A stretch of DNA of 36,480 bases from a virus, in IMG/VR virus record IMGVR_UViG_3300045988_009883, positions 1 through 36,480 of that record; one strand, 5' to 3'. The first letter of the stretch is position 1. Every line of letters begins with the position of its first letter. Under the pieces are notes generated by a model. It worked only from the letters and a program-made list of their open reading frames with translations. It was not told the origin of the DNA and searched no databases. Below, piece after piece: positions 2,444-36,480 of the stretch. The translations under genes were made by a program, and so were the position numbers.

Positions 2444-3229
2444 TTGCTGAGTGATTTTGAAATCATAACGCGGCACTTTCCAGAAAATAACGATATAAAA
2501 ATTTATCCCATTTCGGATGTCCATCTCGGTGCTGCCGAGCATTTGGCGGCGGAGTGGGATAATTTTTGTAATCGGATTTTGGAAGAGCCGAACAGTTATT
2601 TGATTTTGGGAGGAGATTTGTTGAATAACTCCCTAAAATCAAGCGTCGCAAATATCTATGAAGAAACAATGCGCCCCCGTGAGCAAAAGCGGAGAATGGC
2701 CGAAATGCTAAAACCGATTAAACATAAAATCCTTTGTGCAGTCAACGGGAACCACGAACGGCGGAGCGGGAAAGACGCAGACGATGACCCAACCTATGAC
2801 ATTATGTGCAAGCTGGATTTGGAGCATCTATACCGGGAAAACATGGCCTTTCTTTGCTTGCGGTTCGGCAAAAAAGAAGGCGATGGAAGAAAGAACCCAA
2901 CATATACTTTTGTTGTTACACATGGCGCAGGTGGTGGCGGTTCTACTGGTTCTGCGGTAAATCGTGGTGAAAAATTCGGCTATGTCATAGACGGGATGGA
3001 CTGCCTTGTTTTGGGGCATACACACAAAGCATACACCACGCAACCTAGCAAGATATCCATTGACCTGCAAAACAACAAAGTCAGCTTAAAGCCGTTCAAG
3101 GTGGTTTCTATGACAAGCTGGCTTGCCTATGGAGGATATGCAGCACGCGCGATGCTCACTCCGTCCAGCTATGTCCCTCAAGAAATCATCTTGAGAGGCA
3201 ATCGGAAAGAAATGAGGGTGATTATGTAA
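2444..3229 (+). CDS. Calcineurin-like metallophosphoesterase.
   Basis: Canonical motifs DVHLG, GGDLLNN, GNHE, THGAGGGG and GHTH. TTG start preceded by a GGAGG RBS. Confidence 0.8.
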   Translation: MLSDFEIITRHFPENNDIKIYPISDVHLGAAEHLAAEWDNFCNRILEEPNSYLILGGDLLNNSLKSSVANIYEETMRPREQKRRMAEMLKPIKHKILCAVNGNHERRSGKDADDDPTYDIMCKLDLEHLYRENMAFLCLRFGKKEGDGRKNPTYTFVVTHGAGGGGSTGSAVNRGEKFGYVIDGMDCLVLGHTHKAYTTQPSKISIDLQNNKVSLKPFKVVSMTSWLAYGGYAARAMLTPSSYVPQEIILRGNRKEMRVIM

Positions 3230-3543
3230 TGGCTATGATTTATGTATCGCACAAATTCTGCGGTGATCCTGCTAACATGGAAAGAGCGAAGAAAATCACC
3301 CACGACTTGCAAGTGAACGACCCTGAAAACTGCTATATTTGCCCTCTGTTGGCTTTTTCCAACTTAGTGTATAATGAGATGGGATATGATGAGGAAATGG
3401 CGCTATGCATTGATCTGTTGAGCGTGAGCGATGTTTTGATTGTTGCAAGCGACATCAGCGAGGGCGTTCAGAAAGAAATTGACTTTGCCAGAATGGTTGG
3501 TATGGAGGTGATAGACCTTGCGGAAAAATACCGAGAGATATAA
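3229..3543 (+). CDS. DUF4406/DUF1937-like protein (nucleoside 2-deoxyribosyltransferase-like fold family).
   Basis: 104 aa. The pattern IYVSHKFCGDP..CYICPLLAFS..DLLSVSDVLIV..ISEGVQKEIDFA is recalled from that family. TAATG start/stop overlap with the upstream gene. Confidence 0.5.
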   Translation: MAMIYVSHKFCGDPANMERAKKITHDLQVNDPENCYICPLLAFSNLVYNEMGYDEEMALCIDLLSVSDVLIVASDISEGVQKEIDFARMVGMEVIDLAEKYREI

Positions 3544-3733
3544 TCTGTCAAGGGATGAACTACAATACCTCATCGACCAATGGATTTTCAACGAGCGTCA
3601 CCGGCTCATTTTGGCTGACAGGCTATTCAATGGAACGACTTATGAACGGCTTGCGGAAAAATATGGACTATCCACCCAGCAAGTGAAGAACATCGTTTAC
3701 AAGGCGATGGACAGGCTGGAAAAACACCTATAA
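3518..3733 (+). CDS. Small sigma-70 region-4-like helix-turn-helix transcriptional regulator.
   Basis: 71 aa. ..LIDQWIFNERHRLILADRLFNGTTYERLAEKYGLSTQQVKNIVYKAMDRLEKHL has the region-4/LuxR-like HTH layout. TTG start 7 nt after GGAGGTG. Confidence 0.55.
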   Translation: MRKNTERYNLSRDELQYLIDQWIFNERHRLILADRLFNGTTYERLAEKYGLSTQQVKNIVYKAMDRLEKHL

Positions 3734-3751
3734 TTTAACAAAACTTTATTG

Positions 3752-3795
3752 AAAGCTACTCTTGTAATTGATTTTACAAGGGTAGCTTTTTTGTT
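3752..3795 (+). terminator. Rho-independent terminator.
   Basis: The stem aaagctactcttgtaa / ttacaagggtagcttt is followed by TTTTTGTT. Confidence 0.8.
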
Positions 3796-3825
3796 ATGCT
3801 CATTGCAGAAAGTGAGGCGATTTTT

Positions 3826-4056
3826 ATGACCATCGATGAATACATCAAATCAAAAGAAAAATTCCATCTAATGCCGTTTGTGACGATTTACACTGCGATT
3901 ATGGAATTGATTGAAGATGGCTATATAGAGCAGACAGCATTTGAGAAAGCGGGTGGTCCCGATGTGGCAGTACATAAACTTGAACCCAAAAGGGAAAAGT
4001 GTGGGGGACTGCACTGTCAGGGCGATTGCCATTGCCACGGGAAGTGCGTGGATTGA
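3826..4056 (+). CDS. Hypothetical 76-aa protein with a Cys/His-rich tail. It overlaps the next gene by 95 nt.
   Basis: ATG at 3826 with RBS gtgagg 9 nt upstream. The track start at 3796 lies in a putative -10 box. The C-terminus CGGLHCQGDCHCHGKCVD is encoded in the alternative frame of the next gene. Confidence 0.35.
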   Translation: MTIDEYIKSKEKFHLMPFVTIYTAIMELIEDGYIEQTAFEKAGGPDVAVHKLEPKREKCGGLHCQGDCHCHGKCVD

Positions 4057-4342
4057 CACCTATCTTGATTTGTGCCTTTTCGGGATGATTATGGCAGATA
4101 TGCCGAGCGCTAACGCAATTACAACTGCTTATCTGAAAAAGAATGGTTTTCGCAGGCGCACAATTCCAGATGATTGCCCTGATTGTTACACAATATCCGA
4201 TTTTTGCAAAGACCACCCAAAAGGAACATACATAATCGGAACAGGAAGTCACCTAACAACCGTTATAGATGGCGATTTGTGGGATTCGTGGAACTCAGAA
4301 AACGAAACACCTGTTTACTATTTTGAAAAAATGGAGGATTGA
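3962..4342 (+). CDS. Conserved phage protein with a putative Cys-His (papain-like) motif.
   Basis: MWQYINLNPKGKSVGDCTVRAIA.. and ..GTGSHLTTVIDGDLWDSW match the N-terminus and core of a family I recall from gut Firmicutes phages. The start could instead be the TTG at 3941. Confidence 0.55.
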   Translation: MWQYINLNPKGKSVGDCTVRAIAIATGSAWIDTYLDLCLFGMIMADMPSANAITTAYLKKNGFRRRTIPDDCPDCYTISDFCKDHPKGTYIIGTGSHLTTVIDGDLWDSWNSENETPVYYFEKMED

Positions 4343-4344
4343 CC

Positions 4345-4830
4345 ATGGCATACTATGCACCTTTTTACAGGCCGACTTATTACGAATCCGCCCAGCAAAA
4401 TCCTATGGGGCAGTTTAACCAGCAGTTTCAGCAACCTATTACGCAGCCGATGCAGAACGCGCAAATGCCGATGCAAGGACAGCCAACAAATGACTTTCTG
4501 TGGGTGCTGAACGAAAACGAAGCGACTTCATACCCTGTTGCGCCGAATAACACGGTTACTCTGTGGGACAAAAACCTCCCTACCATCTACATCAAGTCCG
4601 TCAATGCGCAGGGCGTTCCGTCTATGCGTATTCTCGATTTTACGGAGCGCACCGCAATTCCCAATAAAACGCCCTCTGTGCCATCTTTTAATTCAACCAA
4701 TAACTTTGTCACCCTTGATAGTTTCAACGCATTAGAAGCGAAATTTGCCGCATTAGAGTGCAAGGTAGATGAATTGCGGCCAAAAGCAAGCGCAAAAGCA
4801 AAGAAAGTTGAGGTAGAAAACGATGCCTAA
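4345..4830 (+). CDS. Hypothetical protein with a Gln/Pro/Met-rich N-terminus, a conserved core and a C-terminal coiled coil.
   Basis: GGAGG lies 9 nt before the ATG at 4345. The N-terminal ~45 aa are QQNPMGQFNQQFQQPITQPMQNAQMPMQGQ. Core: FLWVLNENEATSYPVAPNNTVTLWDKNLPTIYIKSVNAQGVPSMRILDF. Confidence 0.65.
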   Translation: MAYYAPFYRPTYYESAQQNPMGQFNQQFQQPITQPMQNAQMPMQGQPTNDFLWVLNENEATSYPVAPNNTVTLWDKNLPTIYIKSVNAQGVPSMRILDFTERTAIPNKTPSVPSFNSTNNFVTLDSFNALEAKFAALECKVDELRPKASAKAKKVEVENDA

Positions 4831-5032
4831 TCCACTCTTCAGTCAGTTTGGAGGACAGCAGGTCAACCCTATGCAGAAGTTAGTCGAAGATGCAAGAAAG
4901 TTGAAACAGACAATGCAGAACCCTCGTGCTGAGGTAGAACGGCTCATACAAAGCGGCCAAATGTCGCAATCGCAGTTCAACCAATTTTCCCAGATCGCCC
5001 ATCAGATTGTTGGTAGCGGTGTTTTTAATTGA
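4823..5032 (+). CDS. Small Gln-rich hypothetical protein.
   Basis: 69 aa with RBS gaggt. Sequence ..QSGQMSQSQFNQFSQIAHQIV. Its start overlaps the stop of the upstream gene by 8 nt. Confidence 0.55.
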   Translation: MPNPLFSQFGGQQVNPMQKLVEDARKLKQTMQNPRAEVERLIQSGQMSQSQFNQFSQIAHQIVGSGVFN

Positions 5033-5092
5033 TGTTCGAGCCAGTCCGGAATGGCTTTGACATAAATATAATTTTGAAAGGAGACATGTAAA

Positions 5093-5884
5093 TTGTCTAT
5101 TGGAGTTTCCGAGCTTTCGGCTGCTGATGTGGCGGCAGTCGTAGGCAATAACAATGGCCGCAACAACGACGGTATGTTCGGCAATGATTGGGCGTGGATC
5201 GTGATTCTTTTGCTGTTTGGCTGGGGCCGTAATGGTTTTGGTGGCTATGGCGTCGGCTACGGCGCTGGTGCTTCTGTGCCTTGCGCCACTCAGGCCGATG
5301 TTCGAGCTGCTGTTGACCAGCAGACACTTATCAGCAAGATCGATCAGCAGACCTACGGCATTGCAGACACATTCACCGCGCTGAACAACACGCTGAACAA
5401 CAACTTCCGTGGCATTGATAACGCTATCTGCACTCTGGGCTATCAGGGCGCGCAGCATGCCAACAATCTGGCCGCGCAGATGGCTTCCTGCTGCTGCGAC
5501 ACCCGCGCGGCTATTAAGGACGTTGACGTTGGTATTGAGCGCGCTGGATGGAACCTGTCTAAGCAGATTTCCGATTGCTGCTGCAACCTTGAGAAGATGG
5601 ATATGCAGAACCGCTTCGATGCACAGGCGTACAACTGCAACACACTGCAAGCGATTGATAAAGTCGGCGACAGAATTATTGACTACCTTGCGAATGAAAA
5701 AACGCAGGCACTTCGTGACGAAAACTTTGCGCTTCGTCTTGCCGCTTCTCAGGCTAAGCAGAACGAAACACTTCTTAACAAGCTTTCGCCTTGCCCTTCG
5801 CCGGCATACTTTGTGCCTAACCCGAATTGTTGCTACAATGCAAATGTGACATATAGCAACGCTTGCGGTTGTGGCGGTTTCTAA
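5093..5884 (+). CDS. Cys-rich membrane-anchored protein with two CCC motifs and a Gly/Tyr-rich juxtamembrane segment.
   Basis: TTG start 8 nt after AAGGAGA. TM helix WAWIVILLLFGWG followed by NGFGGYGVGYGAG. 14 Cys in total, including SCCCD (aa 133-135), DCCCN (aa 162-164) and the C-terminal CCYNANVTYSNACGCGGF. Codon usage resembles that of the structural genes. Confidence 0.7.
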   Translation: MSIGVSELSAADVAAVVGNNNGRNNDGMFGNDWAWIVILLLFGWGRNGFGGYGVGYGAGASVPCATQADVRAAVDQQTLISKIDQQTYGIADTFTALNNTLNNNFRGIDNAICTLGYQGAQHANNLAAQMASCCCDTRAAIKDVDVGIERAGWNLSKQISDCCCNLEKMDMQNRFDAQAYNCNTLQAIDKVGDRIIDYLANEKTQALRDENFALRLAASQAKQNETLLNKLSPCPSPAYFVPNPNCCYNANVTYSNACGCGGF

Positions 5885-5951
5885 TCGAATAGTGAAACTT
5901 ACTTTTCCCATCGTGGAAATGGTTAGCCGTGTAGGCTGACACTGTTTACAG

Positions 5952-5990
5952 AGGCGGTGGGATGCCATATCCTGCCGCCTTATTTTATTT
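5952..5990 (+). terminator. Rho-independent terminator.
   Basis: A 12-bp stem aggcggtgggat / atcctgccgcct (two G-U pairs) with a 5-nt loop, then TATTTTATTT. Confidence 0.75.
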
Positions 5991-6009
5991 GAAAGGAATG
6001 ATTTAATTT

Positions 6010-6441
6010 ATGGCTGCTGAATACAGCGCAATCGCCGCCCAAAGCGTGGCGGTTGATGAAAATGTTCTCTTTAATAACGGATGTAGGGCTTGCCGGAAAG
6101 GGTTCATCCAGCATCGGGATGATAGCGGCATTTTCTTTCTGAAAGGATCTTCCAATGGTTGCCGTGCCGTGTACCATGTAACTTTCAACGGCAATATCGC
6201 TATTGCAACTGGCGGAACGGTTGAGCCTATTTCCGTGGCTCTGACCATCAACGGTGAGGCGCTGGGCAATGCAACGGCGACCGTCACCCCTGCCGCTGTT
6301 GGGAATTTCTTCAATGTGAGCGTTACCACTTTCATTGATATTCCTTGCGGTTGCTGTGTGACTGTTTCTGTTGAAAACGTAAGTGCGACCACGGCTATTG
6401 ACGTTACTAACGCCAATGTCGTGCTAGAGCGCGTGGCGTGA
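6010..6441 (+). CDS. Beta-rich 143-aa protein resembling BclA C-terminal / C1q-TNF-like exosporium domains.
   Basis: The pattern AAQSVAVDENVLFNN..GIFFLKG..YHVTFNGNIA..ISVALTINGEALGNA..FFNVSVTTFIDIP..VSVENVS..VTNANVVLERVA matches, from memory, the layout of Bacillus/Clostridium BclA-CTD-like proteins. Confidence 0.6.
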   Translation: MAAEYSAIAAQSVAVDENVLFNNGCRACRKGFIQHRDDSGIFFLKGSSNGCRAVYHVTFNGNIAIATGGTVEPISVALTINGEALGNATATVTPAAVGNFFNVSVTTFIDIPCGCCVTVSVENVSATTAIDVTNANVVLERVA

Positions 6442-6458
6442 AGAAAGGAGAATGAACT

Positions 6459-6932
6459 ATGCACTATATGCACGATTTGAAAGATCTGCTCTGCGCAGAA
6501 CTTGAGGATTACGCCGAAAAGGGCAAAAAGTCTGGCAAGATGTCGATGGGCGACCTTGACAGCATCCACAAGCTGACTGATACCGTAAAGAACATTCTCA
6601 AGATTGATATGCTTGAGGAAGAAAGCGGCTACTCCGAGGACGGTCACTATATGGGCGAGGGTCGGATTTATGGCACATCCTACGATGGTTATGACCGTGG
6701 AACCAGTTACGCCCGCGGCCGTGGACGCTATGCCAAGCGTGACAGCATGGGCAGATACAGCCGTGATGATGGCTATATGCGCAGTGATGGACGTGGTATG
6801 CGTGACGGTTACAGCCGGGACGAAGGCAAAGCGTACATGATGGAACAGCTTGAGGACATGATGGAAGATGCTGAAAAGCCCGCCGAAAAGGAAGCTCTGC
6901 GCCGTTGCATGGAAGCTCTGAAACGGGCATAA
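6459..6932 (+). CDS. Protein with helical ends and a central Arg/Gly/Tyr/Asp-rich low-complexity region.
   Basis: Centre: YGTSYDGYDRGTSYARGRGRYAKRDSMGRYSRDDGYMRSDGRGMRDGYSRDEG. Flanks: ..LCAELEDYAEKGKK..HKLTDTVKNILKI.. and ..MMEQLEDMMEDA..ALRRCMEALKRA. AAAGGAG RBS. I recall this as a family common in Clostridia. Confidence 0.65.
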   Translation: MHYMHDLKDLLCAELEDYAEKGKKSGKMSMGDLDSIHKLTDTVKNILKIDMLEEESGYSEDGHYMGEGRIYGTSYDGYDRGTSYARGRGRYAKRDSMGRYSRDDGYMRSDGRGMRDGYSRDEGKAYMMEQLEDMMEDAEKPAEKEALRRCMEALKRA

Positions 6933-6947
6933 CAAGGGGCTGATTGA

Positions 6948-7301
6948 ATGATAACCGAAAAGGAAATTGAGCAGGCAATCGAGGAATGTCTGCGTGAGCC
7001 TGTTACCGGCAATAAGAGGGCAGTTTTGGCTGACCTAATAATCATCCAAGATTACCTTTTCGGAGAGCCTATGCAAGCACATGAGGCACCACAACCGATG
7101 CCAATGCAATCCTATTCCGCTCCGCAAGCAGAACAGGCCGAAACCTATATCCAAACAGACGGCGGCAGCGAATTTCTGAAGGCGGTTGACGGCAGGAAGG
7201 CGGATAAAGTGTGGAAGCTGATGGACGAGCTTGTTGAGGCGGTCAAGATTCTGCATCCTCGGATGTACACGACTTTCATCGACAAGGTACAGGATTTGTA
7301 A
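6948..7301 (+). CDS. Hypothetical protein, usual partner of the preceding gene.
   Basis: 117 aa. The C-terminus SEFLKAVDGRKADKVWKLMDELVEAVKILHPRMYTTFIDKVQDL is recalled as co-occurring with the RGY-rich family. Confidence 0.55.
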   Translation: MITEKEIEQAIEECLREPVTGNKRAVLADLIIIQDYLFGEPMQAHEAPQPMPMQSYSAPQAEQAETYIQTDGGSEFLKAVDGRKADKVWKLMDELVEAVKILHPRMYTTFIDKVQDL

Positions 7302-7304
7302 ACG

Positions 7305-7347
7305 AAAAAGAGGGCAGCACCCGTTAAAAGGTGCTGTCCTTTTTATT
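7305..7347. terminator. Bidirectional rho-independent terminator between convergent genes.
   Basis: An 11-bp stem agggcagcacc / ggtgctgtcct is flanked by AAAAAG upstream and TTTTATTT downstream. Confidence 0.8.
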
Positions 7348-7895
7348 TATACCTCGTTTCCCCAACAATCCCAGCCGTCTGCATATTCCCTTGCAAACAA
7401 TTCAATCCTTGGCAAATCCCCAAAGCCTTTCACAATTCTTTCCCTTACCTCGCTCGGCTTTTGTGAGTGCCTTTTTCTTTCGGCAATGACAAGTTGCTTT
7501 ATGGATTTATCAATTCTAAATTTGTTTGGTTTTCCTTTTATCCCAAGCAAACATAATTCAACATTTCCCATCGTCCATTTTCCCAAATTGGAAATTGGCT
7601 TTCCGTTTTTTGAATATTTAGACCAACAGAAAGCAACTGTTTTAAATTTGAATCCCCAACTTTCCATTGTCTGTATTGCTTCTGGCAACTGTGGAGAAAC
7701 AGCCCACAAAAACAAAATGCAATCTTTTTCACAAATATTTTCAATCGGCAATTCTTTTATCCAATCCAACGGCATTGTTGGATATTCGTTTTCAAGACTA
7801 AAAGAATGCCCGTGCATCTTATCATTATAACTCCAAGGAGGGTCTGCATAGATAATATTGTATTTCTTATCTGTGTTAAAAATGTCTACTCTCAT
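7347..7895 (-). CDS. MT-A70 family N6-adenine DNA methyltransferase.
   Basis: DPPW catalytic motif (IIYADPPWSY), plus ..LFLWAV.., ..GFKFKT..FCW.K and ..HSQKP. RBS GAGGAGG 8 nt upstream. It is the only convincing minus-strand gene. Confidence 0.85.
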   Translation of the reverse strand: MRVDIFNTDKKYNIIYADPPWSYNDKMHGHSFSLENEYPTMPLDWIKELPIENICEKDCILFLWAVSPQLPEAIQTMESWGFKFKTVAFCWSKYSKNGKPISNLGKWTMGNVELCLLGIKGKPNKFRIDKSIKQLVIAERKRHSQKPSEVRERIVKGFGDLPRIELFAREYADGWDCWGNEV

Positions 7896-7936
7896 AAAAT
7901 TGCCTCCTCAATAATCTATCCATCCTGGACACCATT

Positions 7937-7965
7937 ATTCTACCACACCAACCACAAAAAGTAAA
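7937..7965 (-). promoter_or_regulatory. Putative promoter of the methyltransferase gene.
   Basis: On the minus strand: TTTACT - 17 nt - TAGAAT with an upstream TGg (extended -10). Confidence 0.35.
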
Positions 7966-8008
7966 GAAAAATATTTATAACTTTTTTAGAATTTTTGAGA
8001 AATAGTTG

Positions 8009-8037
8009 TTGACAAACATACGAGTCGGTGTTATAAT
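8009..8037 (+). promoter_or_regulatory. Consensus sigma-A/sigma-70 early promoter.
   Basis: TTGACA (8009-8014), a 17-nt spacer, then TATAAT (8032-8037) preceded by TGt. It shares AGTTGTTGACAAA and GGTGTTnTAAT with the promoter at 14988. Confidence 0.8.
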
Positions 8038-8080
8038 GATTACAGAAATTAAGGGTAGCGACCTACCGCTGGAGGCAAAT

Positions 8081-8599
8081 ATGATGTATCGGTGTTGCGA
8101 GTGTGGAAACCTGTTTGAAGAAGGCGAACAGGCTGTATGGTATGAAAACCAGGGAGAGTGCCACGGCGTAACTGCTATGGAACGGTTCAGCGGTTGCCCT
8201 ATTTGCCATGAAGATTATGAGGAAGTACACCAGTGCAAAGATTGCGGAGATTGGCATTCAGAGGACGAACTGTATGATGGCTGGTGCGAAAAATGCTTGC
8301 GTGAAACTATCAACTACGACACATTCTTTGAGTATTGCGAGGCGAACAAGGAAGAGAATTATCTTGACACGTTTGTTATGTGCTATCTGCTGAATTGCGA
8401 TGAAGTTCCGAAATATCCGTCTTGGGATTTCCATCAACTGATGGCTGAAACATACAAGCGGAGAGTTGCCAATGCAAAACCGCTTGGAGAAAAGTTCGGA
8501 TTCTTGGAAGATTGCATCCGCTTCGTCATGGATGACGATGGCTCCATTGGCAGAGAAAATTATGCTTATTGGCTGAATAATAGAAAGGAGGTGAAATAA
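8081..8599 (+). CDS. Zinc-ribbon-containing early protein of unknown function.
   Basis: ATG at 8081, 5 nt after GGAGG. The track start at 8006 lies inside the promoter. CxxC pairs: CCECG, CPICH, CKDCG and CEKC. Confidence 0.65.
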   Translation: MMYRCCECGNLFEEGEQAVWYENQGECHGVTAMERFSGCPICHEDYEEVHQCKDCGDWHSEDELYDGWCEKCLRETINYDTFFEYCEANKEENYLDTFVMCYLLNCDEVPKYPSWDFHQLMAETYKRRVANAKPLGEKFGFLEDCIRFVMDDDGSIGRENYAYWLNNRKEVK

Positions 8600-8772
8600 T
8601 GGCAGGAAGAAAGTACGAACCCGACAGGAAGCGAGTTAGAAAGGATACCCAGGTTGTGATTTCTGTTAGTCCTAACGAAAAGGAACAAATCGAACAGGAA
8701 GCAAAGAATCTCGGCCTGTCAAACAGCGCATATTTCCGTATGCTTTGGATGACAAACAGAAAGGAGAAATAA
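8599..8772 (+). CDS. Ribbon-helix-helix (CopG/MobC-like) DNA-binding protein, 57 aa (below the track cut-off).
   Basis: My translation: MAGRKYEPDRKRVRKDTQVVISVSPNEKEQIEQEAKNLGLSNSAYFRMLWMTNRKEK, a beta-strand/helix/helix pattern typical of RHH. TAATG overlap with the upstream gene. Confidence 0.55.
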   Translation: MAGRKYEPDRKRVRKDTQVVISVSPNEKEQIEQEAKNLGLSNSAYFRMLWMTNRKEK

Positions 8773-12209: not shown

Positions 12210-14034
12210 CTATACGGCTGAGCAATTCTATGACACGACAGAACCATACGAGTTTCTGTATCAGTTTCGGGATAATAAGTTTCTTCTCAAACAGATGGTG
12301 CAGAAAATGAAAGCAAAAGCCGGAGCGGTAGGAGTAAAATGCTTCATCGCATTATGGGATGCATATCAAGAAATGATGGCACAGAAAAACGGCGTAATGC
12401 TTGCCAATTCCACTCAGTTTGACGGGCAGGAAATGGAGCTTTTCAGCGGTGAGTACATCTGCGACGAAAACGGCGTGTTTTTGGTGGATAAGTACGGCTA
12501 TGAAAATACAATCTGCCGTCACCCGATAATGCCCGTTCAAAGGCTCTGCAACATTGATTCCGGAGAAGAACGGCTGAAAATTGCGTATAAAAAAGGCCGG
12601 TCGTGGAGGTCAATCATTGTCGAGAAGTCCGTGATTGCATCGTCAAGCAGTATCCTTCAGCTTGCGGCCAACGGAATTATGGTGAACAGTGAAAATGCAA
12701 AGGCACTGTCAACTTACATCCTTGAAATGGAACAGCTCAATTATGAACTGATACCCGAACAGAAATCCGTTGGTAGGCTCGGCTGGGTCGGCGAACACGG
12801 GTTCTCCCCATTCGTCGATGACCTTGTGTTTGACGGTGAAACAAATTTCAGGCACATTTTTAATGCCGTCAAACCGGAGGGGAGCCGCAATGCTTGGCTC
12901 TATGCTATGCAAGACCTGAGAAAAGAAAAAAGCCCCGGACGGTTGTTTCTTGCTGCGTCTTTTGCGAGTGCCATTCTTGAGCCGTGCGGCCTGTTGCCGT
13001 TTTTCCTCCATGCATGGGGTGGAACAGAGACCGGCAAAACAGTCGGATTGATGATTGCAGCGTCCGTGTGGGCGTGCCCTAAACTCGGGGAATATGTGAC
13101 CACCTTTAATAGCACGCTTGTCGGGCAAGAAATGACGGCTTCTTTCCTGAACAGCCTTCCGATGTGCATTGATGAGCTTCAAATCCAGTCAAGTTCCGGT
13201 GTCAGGGACTTTGACCGAATTATTTACCAGCTTACCGAAGGTGTAGGCCGTACCCGTGGTGCCAAAACAGGCGGATTGCAAAAGATGAATACCTGGAAGA
13301 ACTGCATAATCACGAACGGAGAACACCCGATTAGCAATGCGAACAGCGGCGGCGGCGCCGTCAACCGTGTTATTGAGTTTGAGTGTGACGAAAAGGTTTA
13401 TTCTGATCTTGTAGGAATCTGCGCAGTCATTCAGTCAAACTATGGCTTTGCTGGCCGTGAGTTCGTCGAATACCTCCAGACAGATGGAGCATTTGACCGT
13501 GTAAATGCGCTCCAGAAAGAATATTATCGGGAACTCCTGAAATCTGACAGCACGGACAAGCAGGCGGCGTCCGCATCCGCTATCCTTGCCGCTGACCATA
13601 TCGCAACGGAATTGATTTTCAAGGACGGGAACAACCTGACAGTTGCAGACCTTGAAAAGATTATGGCAAAGAAAAAGGAAGTCAACGTCAACAATCGTGC
13701 GCTTGAATTTATCTATGAGTTGGTGGAGCGCAACCCGAACAGGTTCAAGGCAAACGAATTTGGAGATTATCAAGGAGAAGTCTGGGGAAAGTCCGAAGAA
13801 ACCTGCATCTACATTATCAAATCAGTTTTTGATCGTGAGATGGGGAACGGAGGGTTTAACTCCACGGCTTTCCTCGCGTGGGCAAAGCGAAACGACATCA
13901 TAATTACAGACAACGGAAAACGTACAAAAAAGGCGAGAATTACTGGTTCTGCAACGAATTGCGTGTGTATTAAGAAGAATTTGAGCGAATTTGAGACGGA
14001 ACAAATTGAAGAAATGGACATGTTGCCGTTTTGA
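12181..14034 (+). CDS. DUF927-type replicative helicase (SF3-like P-loop NTPase).
   Basis: ..LGWVGEHGFSPF.. then Walker A WGGTETGKTVGLMIAASVWACP and Walker B MCIDELQ. ATG at 12181 is preferred (7 nt after GAGG); 12175 is also possible. Confidence 0.7.
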   Translation: MKNEISVIPDYTAEQFYDTTEPYEFLYQFRDNKFLLKQMVQKMKAKAGAVGVKCFIALWDAYQEMMAQKNGVMLANSTQFDGQEMELFSGEYICDENGVFLVDKYGYENTICRHPIMPVQRLCNIDSGEERLKIAYKKGRSWRSIIVEKSVIASSSSILQLAANGIMVNSENAKALSTYILEMEQLNYELIPEQKSVGRLGWVGEHGFSPFVDDLVFDGETNFRHIFNAVKPEGSRNAWLYAMQDLRKEKSPGRLFLAASFASAILEPCGLLPFFLHAWGGTETGKTVGLMIAASVWACPKLGEYVTTFNSTLVGQEMTASFLNSLPMCIDELQIQSSSGVRDFDRIIYQLTEGVGRTRGAKTGGLQKMNTWKNCIITNGEHPISNANSGGGAVNRVIEFECDEKVYSDLVGICAVIQSNYGFAGREFVEYLQTDGAFDRVNALQKEYYRELLKSDSTDKQAASASAILAADHIATELIFKDGNNLTVADLEKIMAKKKEVNVNNRALEFIYELVERNPNRFKANEFGDYQGEVWGKSEETCIYIIKSVFDREMGNGGFNSTAFLAWAKRNDIIITDNGKRTKKARITGSATNCVCIKKNLSEFETEQIEEMDMLPF

Positions 14035-35365: not shown

Positions 35366-36480
35366 ATGGACGAATCCACATACGTAGGGCCGACCGCGGC
35401 CGCGAAACTTGCTGCGCTGGCAAAGGCGGAGCTGGGCAAAAAGGCTGGAAAAGACGTCGCCACGTCCGAAGCTGACGGCCTTATGTCTGCATCTGACAAG
35501 AGCAAACTTGATGGTATCGAGTCCGGGGCAAACAAAACCATCGTGGACGCGGCGCTGGATGCGTCCAGCACGAATTCAGTGCAGAACAAGGCCGTCAAGG
35601 CGGCGCTGGATGGCAAGCTGTCAACGCGGGGTGGCGAAATTTCTGGCTATCTGGAGGTCGGTCAGACAGTCAGCGCCGAGGGATCTGTATCTGTTGGCAG
35701 GACGAGCTCCGATAGCGGCATCCACTTTGAGAAAGCGGCTTCTGACGCTGGGCGCATTTCGCATGGCATGGCTGGCGTCGACGATACGGTTCCGCTTGCC
35801 CGACTGAAAGTGGCTGCCCCGACCGAGGATGACGACGCGGCGACTAAGGCGTATGTAGATAACAACGCTGCCGGGACTGGCGCGGTTAGATACGATGCTA
35901 CGCAGACGCTGACTTTTGAGCAGAAACAACAGGCGCGCAAAAATATTGAGGCGGCGGATAGCGTAATGCCTACCATTACTGGCGGTGTGTCACTGTGCCC
36001 GGCAAACGTTACGGATAGCAACACGGCAGTTCATACTACGACCACAACTGCCGGAGGCGATGATTTCACTCTCACGCTTGACGGCGGACCGGAAAATTCG
36101 CTTGTGCGTGTGAAAGGAATCAGAACGCCAACTGATGCAGACACCGACGCGGCCGCGACCGTCAAATACGTTAAGGAAAAAATCGCAGAAGTCGCTGCGA
36201 GCGGCGGAGTGGACGTGGATAATGCGTTGTCGGCTACATCTACCAACCCCGTCCAAAACAAAGTTGTGACTTCCGCCTTGAACGGCAAAGCCGGTACCGC
36301 AGTGGCTACACAGTCAATCAACGGCCTGATGTCCGCTGCCGATAAGAAAAAATTGGACGGGATCGCGTCTGGCGCGACCAAAGTCACTATTGACAGCACT
36401 ATGTCCGGGTCATCAAACAACCCAGTCGCAAACCATGTCGTCAAGCAGTACGTCGATGACAAGGTGGCTGCTGCTGGCAG
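35366..36480 (+). CDS. Tail fibre / receptor-binding protein, 5' part (no stop in the window; continues at 56-767).
   Basis: ATG at 35366. My translation: MDESTYVGPTAAAKLAALAKAELGKKAG... with repeated STN(P/S)VQNK.V and GLMSA.DK.KLDGI motifs. The frame is open to the window end, so the gene is absent from the ORF track. Confidence 0.8.
   Translation, partial: MDESTYVGPTAAAKLAALAKAELGKKAGKDVATSEADGLMSASDKSKLDGIESGANKTIVDAALDASSTNSVQNKAVKAALDGKLSTRGGEISGYLEVGQTVSAEGSVSVGRTSSDSGIHFEKAASDAGRISHGMAGVDDTVPLARLKVAAPTEDDDAATKAYVDNNAAGTGAVRYDATQTLTFEQKQQARKNIEAADSVMPTITGGVSLCPANVTDSNTAVHTTTTTAGGDDFTLTLDGGPENSLVRVKGIRTPTDADTDAAATVKYVKEKIAEVAASGGVDVDNALSATSTNPVQNKVVTSALNGKAGTAVATQSINGLMSAADKKKLDGIASGATKVTIDSTMSGSSNNPVANHVVKQYVDDKVAAAG
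36426..36480. repeat. Exact 55-nt terminal direct repeat, copy 2.
   Basis: Identical to positions 1-55. Confidence 0.95.

Follow-up and report, generated by a model that had tools for sequence, protein, structure and literature searches.

A rigid, co-inherited accessory cassette of phages of gut and rumen Clostridia, with a Cys-rich membrane protein and a predicted TNF/C1q-type jelly-roll protein at its core

What might six small, co-oriented open reading frames (ORFs; P1 to P6) contribute to the phage of IMG/VR record IMGVR_UViG_3300045988_009883, where they lie between the lysis/regulator block and the replication genes? A preliminary description, made from the letters of this 36,480-nt stretch (the whole of which we call the window), had read them as an accessory module of spore-surface or self-assembling building blocks. 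We find that the six ORFs form the heart of a larger accessory cassette that is self-contained. Siphophages whose hosts are Clostridia of gut and rumen have it at the distal end of the late region, with the lysis genes on one side and the integrase or early genes on the other. Our data firmly establish that the cassette is a rigid, co-inherited operon, that the P3-P4 pair is its most constant core, and that it is accessory and lies outside the virion gene clusters.

The evidence for co-inheritance comes from a census in which profile hidden Markov models (HMMs), built from retrieved loci, were run on 98 loci with enough flanking sequence, all of them retrieved via P4 and close relatives included. 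Gene order was colinear in 97 of the 98 loci, and this colinearity persisted at protein identities of 30-55%; P4 and P0, the gene that precedes P1, were the most conserved members, at ∼50% identity against 29-40% for the others. P4 was accompanied by P3 in 97 loci, P1 in 86, P5 in 85, P0 and P2 in 82 each, and P6 in 58, and the full P0-P6 set was present in 55. P0 lay directly 5′ of P1 in 82 of the 98 loci, P6 was always behind P5, and a gene for a small helix-turn-helix (HTH) protein resembling sigma-70 region 4 occurred on the same strand within 6 kb upstream of P4 in 73 of the 98 loci. Ten loci scored as having P3 and P4 only are phages of 57-62 kb, and in the one of these that was read (L081) divergent P1, P2 and P5 genes are visibly present. 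The sole non-colinear locus, on a contig of a Lachnospiraceae metagenome-assembled genome (MAG) (L132, 8500-13900), has P1-P3-P4 followed, ∼2.5 kb on, by P0 and a holin gene, and its cassette lies upstream of the lysis genes. Thus, the suggestion in the preliminary description that these accessory genes travel together, and that co-occurrence outside this genome would reveal it, was strongly borne out.

We considered the possibility that the locus is an accidental neighbourhood of unrelated small genes, as might be argued from the occurrence of P0 alone elsewhere, from the absence of P6, P2 or P0 in some loci, and from the P0 and holin genes downstream of P4 in L132. This explanation is highly improbable in view of the colinearity at such low protein identity, the reading frames that abut or overlap, and the conservation of an internal hairpin (described below); nor do the loci represent one recent clone, since they come from rumen, lemur, mouse and human phages of 28-139 kb. 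In two phages that otherwise differ, an HNH/NUMOD4 homing-endonuclease gene sits on the opposite strand exactly between P2 and P3 (L164:8300-8851 (−) and, in Dulem virus 33, L002:6410-6961 (−)). This junction, a gap of only 60 nt in the window, looks like a recurrent homing site within the operon.

The cassette genes are also abundant. P4 forms at least 8000 clusters at 90% identity in a metagenome protein set, and P0 at least ∼7800. More than 580 IMG/VR contigs encode P4, as do only 144 places in 185,579 species genomes, nearly all of them in MAGs of Oscillospiraceae, Lachnospiraceae, Ruminococcus, Acutalibacteraceae and other Clostridia; several of these genome contigs are ∼40 kb and phage-genome-like. 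P4 was also binned with Subdoligranulum, Butyricicoccus, Pseudobutyrivibrio and Faecalibacterium, bin assignments being uncertain. Every locus inspected had a phage or prophage setting, contrary to the expectation that the families might also occur in sporulation loci, with the qualification that many of the genome loci could not be classified with our crude marker panel. A nucleotide search of a phage collection returned only two short matches, of 72%.

In the window, the six co-oriented ORFs, their position between a lysis/regulator block and the replication genes, and three terminators were all as the preliminary description had them, the terminators being recovered by a scan for hairpins with T tracts (the last of them scored on the minus strand, 7336-7315, and bidirectional). 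The unit of six genes it proposed is indeed co-oriented, but it starts one gene earlier, with P0, and the regulator gene usually lies upstream, such that the full order is the regulator resembling sigma-70 region 4 and Mor, terminator, P0, P1, P2, P3, hairpin, P4, P5, P6, terminator (Table 1). P0 and P1 are separated by 2 nt, P4 and P5 by 17 nt, and P5 and P6 by 15 nt; P1 and P2 overlap by 8 nt, through which translation of P2 is predicted to be coupled to that of P1. An 86-amino acid (aa) ORF overlaps the start of P0 by 95 nt, ends in a Cys/His cluster (CGGLHCQGDCHCHGKCVD) and has only weak, winged-helix-like Pfam matches; other loci have an unrelated short ORF of ∼45-50 aa before P0, for example MTLIERMVAAGMSRD.

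P4, at 143 aa, provides the strongest structural information. An AlphaFold2 model computed from an alignment of 145 sequences is an 11-strand all-beta domain (predicted local distance difference test (pLDDT) 90.7; predicted template-modelling score (pTM) 0.85). When this model was compared with the PDB using Foldseek, the top matches were ExsF, ExsFA/BxpB and the C-terminal domains (CTDs) of BclA and F-BclA (entries 9h3d, 3tyj, 7r1m, 8d02, 9h38 and 1wck; E 6e-8 to 4e-7, template-modelling (TM) score 0.65-0.74, 12-16% identity), followed by EDA, 4-1BBL, C1q-family domains and a cyanophage fibre domain. Among viral models (BFVD), the closest were stand-alone proteins of metagenomic phages of 130-145 aa (TM score 0.8-0.9), two of which are automatically labelled 'BclA protein', with many fibre C-termini ranking after them. 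The model supports, at the level of fold only, a TNF/C1q jelly roll closest to BxpB/ExsFA and the BclA CTD. At the level of sequence, P4 had no Pfam or NCBIfam match at E≤1, and a search of the PDB with the 145-sequence profile found no BclA or BxpB chain; the earlier guess of a BclA-CTD or C1q/TNF layout was therefore right about the fold and not about sequence membership. Of the P4 cysteines, C115 is invariant and C51 and C116 are nearly so. We also asked whether the many P4 variants of 85-94% identity marked a hypervariable or diversity-generating hotspot, and rejected this because per-column entropy revealed ordinary scattered variation.

The resemblance to exosporium proteins invites a comparison with what is known of them. 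BxpB is a stand-alone, 11-strand trimer of 167 aa that becomes very stable once bound to BclA residues 20-38 and that contacts Cys-rich proteins of the basal layer (PMC10470788). Exosporium loci place BclA-type and Cys-rich genes together (PMC7333573). Isopeptide bonding of BclA to BxpB was reported in 2011, in a paper that is now marked as retracted and was not used.

These similarities form part of the case for a spore-surface module, in which products made in the mother cell of sporulating lysogens would be built into the coat or exosporium, with P4 as the BxpB/BclA-type protein, P3 as a cross-linked Cys-rich layer and P1, P2 and P5 as Gln/Tyr-rich components that could be cross-linked. Bacillus exosporium proteins take all the top places among the structural matches of P4, with TNF and C1q ranking behind them, and none of the cassette products has a signal peptide, as is also true of coat proteins. 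The host clade is likewise suggestive, since many Oscillospiraceae, Lachnospiraceae and other Clostridia sporulate, and the location of the cassette is one classically associated with lysogenic conversion. Furthermore, its Cys-rich gene adjoins the BclA-type gene, as at exosporium loci (PMC7333573), and gut phages are known to carry sporulation genes, though no coat genes (PMC10294663). Because the survey of such genes lists regulators and cortex hydrolases and no coat or exosporium genes (PMC10294663), a role in a spore layer would be new. However, the P4-type fold is not specific to spores. TNF/C1q tips occur in phage fibres, and P4 matched a fibre domain of cyanophage A-1(L) (8ke9), the A4 tail complex (9k09) and many fibres in BFVD, which could also point to a protein of the virion, an explanation to which we return once the position of the cassette has been described.

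The remaining structural candidates gave no family assignments that would connect them to spores. Scans of P0-P6 against Pfam and NCBIfam returned nothing above threshold, and sequence-profile searches of the PDB with P0, P1, P3 and P4 returned no match. P0-P5 do match PHROG families, all catalogued as of unknown function; for five of the six ORFs first described (P1-P5) the E-values ranged from 5e-5 to 7e-45. P3, the Cys-rich member, contains 14 Cys, among them CCC triplets at residues 133-135 and 162-164. Its one hydrophobic stretch (about residues 28-45) is predicted to be its single transmembrane segment; no other product has a comparable segment, and a reading of the sequences found no signal peptide in any. 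Relatives of P3 share a Gly/Trp-flanked transmembrane segment, a Q/N-rich helical region with an invariant CCC, a coiled stretch of the form 'ASQ..Q', a PxPVPAYxVPNP motif, and a Cys/Gly tail. The Pro-rich motif bears a loose resemblance, and only that, to the N-terminal targeting peptide of BclA-type proteins. P3 and 30 of its relatives had no Pfam match and thus none to CotY/Z or another spore family, and the transmembrane anchor of P3 sets it apart from ExsY, CotY and CsxA.

P1 has a first 50 residues rich in Gln, Pro, Met and Tyr (Q12, P7, M5, Y5), followed by a conserved beta-type core of ∼55 aa (WVxGExxAxxYxVAPxxxVxLWD...YxK), a short helix and a K/E tail. A search with this core among 1.84 billion representatives gave 1092 clusters, of which the 150 listed were all stand-alone proteins of 68-236 aa with no domain fusions. 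Its likeness to GerQ is one of composition alone, lying in the Gln-rich N-terminus, and neither P1 nor 27 aligned relatives matched Spore_GerQ at E≤1 or any other Pfam family. P2 (69 aa) is 19% Gln. The P5 core contains G15, R12, Y10 and D9 in 70 residues between helical N- and C-terminal segments, and P6 is helical as well. Low-complexity linkers and a conserved C-terminal motif occur in both, the motif of P6 being SEF..AV.G....W.vMDELm.tl..vNprvY..v..K. No product of the seven contains Gly-X-Y repeats or matches the Collagen family of Pfam. The compositions reported in the preliminary description for P1, P2, the P5 core, and the Cys residues and CCC triplets of P3 were thus accurate, except that P3 is Gly/Tyr-rich only beside its transmembrane segment. 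Its proposal that the proteins belong to the GerQ, CotY/CdeC, CotG and BclA classes did not survive the searches, which found no such family (nor CotY/Z or BclA_C) for the six products or for the relatives of P1 and P3, and this counts against a spore-surface module.

P0 has a different character. Cys17, His97 and Asp108 are invariant in 121 sequences, and the best Foldseek matches of its AlphaFold2 model (pLDDT 94.8) were all to papain-fold enzymes, albeit weak ones: Josephin-2 (probability 0.85, TM score 0.48, best E 0.05), the C39 domain of PCAT1, Tae4, staphopain and UfSP2. From these features P0 is predicted to be a papain-like cysteine peptidase. It had no sequence-family match in Pfam or NCBIfam or in the PDB profile search, and Pfam scans of 27 to 31 relatives of P0, P1 and P3 revealed no family consistently and none linked to spores. 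The P0 family, phrog_3754, is far more widespread than the cassette. Lone P0 genes occur in Tsamsa-like Bacillus jumbo siphophages, where they are annotated as 'putative peptidase', in Geobacillus phage GBK2 (L169), where the gene precedes recombinase genes, and in Prevotella Lak megaphages, and a homologue lies near an Ocr-like gene in Bacillus phage Izhevsk (L170). Its solitary occurrence in phages of Bacillus and Geobacillus and in Lak phages rules out the idea that P0 belongs to the cassette only.

The window begins and ends with the same 55 bases (1-55 and 36426-36480). Because of this terminal overlap we conclude that it represents a complete circular genome, 36,425 bp in size, in which the tail-fibre gene crosses the junction (from ∼35366 through the ends to 767). 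Around the circle, a probable early promoter of consensus type (∼8009-8037) is followed by the replication genes, terminase, portal, capsid, tape measure, Dit, Tal, tail fibre, Amidase_2 endolysin, holin, a metallophosphatase, a DUF7768 protein, the 71-aa Sigma70_r4/Mor-like protein, the terminator, the cassette, and a convergent MT-A70 methylase gene that precedes the replication genes. The cassette is thus the last unit of a one-directional genome and stands outside the head and tail clusters.

A comparable position was found in relatives. The cassette lies between a PGRP lysin and the integrase in Dulem virus 33, and between a holin with a GH25 lysin and a serine or tyrosine recombinase in L171, L172 and L174; in an Acutalibacter muris MAG, no further phage block stands between it and the host genes. 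Among 82 viral loci, a recombinase gene was present within 4.5 kb downstream on the opposite strand in 28 and upstream in 9, and the contig ended right after the cassette in 21. The neighbouring recombinases are of both the tyrosine and the serine type, and the neighbouring lysins vary (Amidase_2 in the window, and Peptidase_M15_3, GH25, glucosaminidase and PGRP). Because the adjoining lysins differ between relatives, we conclude that the cassette is a mobile accessory block in the classical position of a moron. It has moved among phages whose lysins, holins and recombinases are not the same. Its location at the junction of lysis genes and integrase or att site and its own terminators are those of a moron; the restriction of morons to temperate phages does not extend to it, since the integrase-less window genome and the virulent Butyrivibrio phage Ceridwen both have the full cassette. 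The lysis genes and the cassette of L171, L172 and L174 are kept apart by genes on the opposite strand, one of them AcrIC5-like, which means that the cassette needs a promoter of its own in these phages.

These arrangements bear directly on whether P4 is a trimeric decoration or auxiliary receptor-binding protein, with the other products as attachment factors, assembly factors or ejected proteins. Besides the fibre tips of the same fold, a virion role would fit the standing of P4 and P0 as the most conserved members, the retention of the cassette in virulent phages, and the high codon adaptation index (CAI) of P3 and P5 relative to the capsid and tail genes. The CAI values against that set were 0.78 for P3, 0.73 for P5, 0.69 for P1, 0.68 for P4, 0.64 for P6 and 0.56 for P2, to be read against a range of 0.55-0.76 for the other non-reference genes of the window; P3 and P5 are thus high, P1 and P4 average, and P2 and P6 low, which lends weak support to the earlier statement that several genes use codons like highly expressed structural genes. 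However, a virion module would be expected inside the head or tail clusters and to co-vary with them, whereas the cassette is combined with varying lysis and tail-end genes in relatives, keeps company with more than one kind of tail and lysis module, and is placed past the lysis genes, regulators and a terminator, with opposite-strand genes interposed in some relatives. In addition, P4 lacks an N-terminal shaft or anchor domain and P3 is a membrane protein. We consider it unlikely that the cassette is a virion accessory.

The distribution of the cassette among phage lifestyles and hosts was also informative with respect to spores. No integrase, recombinase or repressor was detectable in the complete window genome, for which reason the phage looks virulent or non-integrating. 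Butyrivibrio fibrisolvens does not form spores. The full cassette is nevertheless held by Ceridwen, which was isolated on B. fibrisolvens DSM 3071 and is virulent according to its authors (PMC7372960). The claim of a spore-specific role is hard to reconcile with the maintenance of the cassette in these two genomes, and the genera noted above with which P4 was binned (Subdoligranulum, Butyricicoccus, Pseudobutyrivibrio and Faecalibacterium) are described as asporogenous, their bins being uncertain. Nor was a sporulation promoter identified in the regions upstream of P0: these are too diverse, and the TAnACT-like element and the repeat of one subgroup that they contain are not assignable to a sigma factor. 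With both sides weighed, we regard a spore-surface module as quite improbable. A few kb past its cassette, at 12407-12982, Ceridwen (L001) carries a gene for a PF07486 (SleB/CwlJ-type) cell-wall hydrolase; because the host of this phage does not sporulate, 'sporulation-like' phage genes need not act in sporulation. A broader version, in which an exosporium-style kit (P4 as trimeric BxpB/BclA-type hub, Cys-rich P3 as anchor, cross-linkable partners rich in Gln, Tyr and Arg, and P0 for processing or cross-linking) lays a protein layer on the membrane of either the forespore or the infected vegetative host, also seems doubtful to us; such a phage-built envelope layer would be without described precedent, and on the forespore it could alter the properties of the coat or exosporium in sporulating lysogens.

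How might the cassette be expressed? The 71-aa protein encoded upstream matches Pfam Sigma70_r4 with 36.5 bits (cut-off 24.1) and Mor with E=1e-4, and small HTH homologues are also present in Ceridwen and in the Acutalibacter muris prophage. Ceridwen has an annotated terminator at the position equivalent to the one at 3751-3790 in the window, and the terminator at the far end is bidirectional because an A tract precedes it and a T tract follows it. The autonomy of the cassette is backed by these terminators on both sides, by the layout in L171, L172 and L174, and by the regulator gene in 73 of the 98 loci. Upstream of P0 by ∼60-100 nt, several loci (L039, L038, L045, L047, L049, L070 and related loci) contain a tandem direct repeat (TTCGTTTGAC/GTTCGTTTAAC), of the form TTCGTTT(G/A)AC. 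A TAnACT element comes next, with a GCGCAAAGGGAGG leader and ribosome-binding site (RBS) ∼8 nt beyond it. Together, the repeat and the TAnACT element are a possible activator-dependent promoter of the cassette. The repeat is absent from the window, where the 86-aa ORF occupies that space.

The P3-P4 spacer (5885-6009 in the window) is ∼125 nt and conserved in length (regions of L003-L082). A hairpin with ΔG≤−12 kcal/mol was present in 46 of 53 distinct intergenic regions, with paired base changes on both arms that keep the stem. An example is GCGGCGGGGCAATCGTCCCGCCGC, followed by a T tract, and a CTGATAnTG-like motif is often found just upstream. In the window, the stretch from the hairpin to the P4 RBS is too short for a promoter, for which reason the hairpin might act as an attenuator, stabiliser or processing site and not simply as a terminator. 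A scan of 3500-8100 with Rfam gave only a sub-threshold match to sbrA, located on a terminator.

The company the cassette keeps raises the possibility of superinfection exclusion, receptor masking or anti-defence, in which P3 and partners would block DNA entry or adsorption, or P0 and partners would neutralise a defence system. It is well established that some morons encode membrane-anchored proteins which keep DNA from entering. In L171, the lysin and the cassette have between them, on the opposite strand, an AcrIC5-family anti-CRISPR gene (L171:3480-3677 (−)) and an HTH gene, on account of which we conclude that the region also collects anti-defence genes; the P0 homologue beside the Ocr-like gene in phage Izhevsk and the upkeep of the cassette in temperate as well as virulent phages are consistent with the same idea. 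On the other hand, no defence-related match above threshold was found with PADLOC or otherwise, the PADLOC scan of the products yielding only a sub-threshold match of P6 to Cas5e (E 0.002, 16 bits). Moreover, known exclusion and anti-defence genes are single and freely shuffled, whereas the cassette is a rigid unit of 6-8 genes, and low-complexity, Cys-rich and jelly-roll proteins are atypical of such functions. We are therefore sceptical that exclusion or anti-defence is its function.

We tentatively favour, as a possible account, that the cassette is autonomously transcribed, is not part of the virion, and builds a membrane-anchored assembly around P3 and P4. It would be a late transcription unit of its own, turned on by the upstream HTH protein, possibly in lysogens too, and its products would work jointly inside the host cell. 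P3 would be inserted in the cytoplasmic membrane, its long C-terminal part facing the cytoplasm, and the assembly would form at the cytoplasmic face of the membrane because only P3 has a hydrophobic or signal segment. A P4 trimer might dock on a short Pro- or Cys-rich peptide of P3 or of a partner, much as BxpB clamps the N-terminal peptide of BclA; the low-complexity proteins P1, P2, P5 and P6 would be recruited to this P3-P4 core, and P0 may trim or cross-link them. In this way a protein layer or scaffold associated with the membrane would arise and change the envelope of the cell, whether infected or lysogenic. Candidate benefits to the phage, none of them specific to spores, are the exclusion of other phages, control of lysis and release, and a change of the host surface.

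Several considerations weigh against this membrane-anchored assembly. The TNF/C1q fold is also common at the fibre tips of phages and giant viruses, and P4 could be an adhesin. The topology of P3 rests on a weak positive-inside signal. P0, being found alone in unrelated phages, may have an independent job. With the hairpin so close to P4 that no separate promoter would fit in the window, expression of P4-P6 depends on read-through past the hairpin, which would be odd for a major structural hub. The counts among the 98 loci, which share retrieval via P4 and include close relatives, are not independent events. Finally, every functional step of the account is one that we infer.

Few unannotated gene sets are as widespread as this cassette in phages of Clostridia from gut and rumen. 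Now that it is recognised as one co-inherited unit whose core is modelled with confidence, seven 'hypothetical proteins' become open to testing as a system, for which a cultured phage-host pair exists in Ceridwen and B. fibrisolvens DSM 3071. If a protein layer is made in or on the host, this would be a new phage route to remodelling Gram-positive cells and a use of an exosporium-type fold outside sporulation; if the function lies instead in the virion or in exclusion, thousands of genes would still gain an annotation.

Table 1. Features of the cassette and its borders in the window, with the basis of each assignment.
Feature	Position	Strand	Basis
Small sigma-70 region-4/Mor-like HTH protein, 71 aa, candidate cassette regulator	3518..3733	+	Pfam Sigma70_r4, Mor
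Intrinsic terminator ending the late (structural and lysis) unit	3751..3790	+	17-pair stem and T tract, consensus scan
Promoter-like site before the cassette, TTTACA-16-TATGCT with TG	3773..3800	+	Consensus scan alone
86-aa ORF with Cys/His-rich C-terminus, overlapping the P0 start, status uncertain	3796..4056	+	ORF list, weak Pfam matches
P0, 126-aa predicted papain-like cysteine peptidase, phrog_3754	3962..4342	+	Invariant residues, AlphaFold2 model
P1, Y/P/Q-rich N-terminus and beta-type core, phrog_21718	4345..4830	+	ORF, PHROG match
P2, 69-aa Gln-rich helical protein, phrog_22984	4823..5032	+	ORF, PHROG match
P3, predicted single-pass membrane protein, Cys-rich, TTG start, phrog_16490	5093..5884	+	Alignment, composition
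GC-rich hairpin and T tract between P3 and P4	5951..5981	+	Consensus scan; conserved
P4, predicted stand-alone TNF/C1q-type jelly-roll protein, phrog_20016	6010..6441	+	AlphaFold2, Foldseek
P5, Arg/Gly/Tyr/Asp low-complexity core between helical segments, phrog_28802	6459..6932	+	PHROG, composition
P6, helical protein with conserved C-terminal motif	6948..7301	+	Alignment of relatives
Bidirectional terminator shared with the convergent MT-A70 methylase gene	7315..7336	both	Hairpin scan, flanking tracts
MT-A70 methylase gene, convergent	7347-7895	−	ORF, Pfam

Some neighbouring features of the window recur in relatives. Between the lysis genes and the regulator (2444-3543) lie genes for a calcineurin-like metallophosphoesterase (261 aa) and a DUF7768/DUF4406-like protein (104 aa), a pair also present in the closest relatives, L163-L165. 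Just past the convergent methylase gene, at the start of the replication region, the window has a perfect sigma-70 consensus promoter (8009-8037; TTGACA-17-TATAAT with TG), which is probably the early promoter. Because this promoter lies inside the listed ORF 8006-8599, the true start of that ORF is likely further downstream. A gene for a small NikA/MobC-like ribbon-helix-helix protein follows the cassette closely both in the window (8599-8772) and in the distant 62-kb relative L081 (9151-9411).

The preliminary description held that nothing like this module had been described in phages. Our literature searches found no paper describing the operon, but its families are catalogued in PHROGs, and stand-alone relatives of P4 already bear an automatic BclA label. 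An accessory cassette at the lysis-integrase junction belongs to a known category; its content and its rigidity are without a described counterpart. Compared with the BxpB/ExsFA-BclA-ExsY/CotY exosporium of the B. cereus group and the ExsF/F-Anchor complex of F-type endospore appendages, the cassette is similar in that P4 is a stand-alone protein of ∼140 aa with a predicted 11-strand jelly roll, that its gene adjoins a Cys-rich gene, and that signal peptides are lacking. It differs in that identity is 12-16% with no profile-level match, that there is no collagen-like partner and no N-terminal targeting sequence of the BclA type, that the Cys-rich partner is anchored by a transmembrane segment, and that the genes are borne by phages, including phages of non-sporulating hosts. 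P3, with its 14 Cys and invariant CCC, carries an N-terminal transmembrane segment that is lacking from ExsY/CotY, CsxA and CdeC, which are soluble Cys-rich proteins that self-assemble into disulfide-stabilised 2-D lattices. The C1q/TNF C-termini of phage tail fibres and of the collagen-like fibres of giant viruses resemble P4 in fold and in being viral, but P4 has no shaft, collagen repeat or baseplate-attachment domain and is encoded outside the tail cluster.

For P0, the likeness to Josephin, C39 and Tae4/NlpC-P60 papain-fold enzymes consists of an invariant Cys, His and Asp on a predicted alpha+beta fold, whereas the matches are weak (E 0.05, TM score 0.48) and there is no sequence-family membership. 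The 71-aa protein resembles Mor/C-type and stand-alone sigma-region-4 activators in its matches to Sigma70_r4 and Mor and in its location just before the cassette in most loci; the TTCGTTT(G/A)AC tandem repeat upstream of P0 in some loci is only a candidate for its target site. The cassette as a whole can be compared with prophage morons, such as those that carry streptococcal and staphylococcal toxin or immune-evasion genes, with which it shares its position, its own terminators and mosaic transfer. In contrast to them, it is a rigid multi-gene operon that has been conserved over hundreds of lineages and is kept even where no integrase is present.

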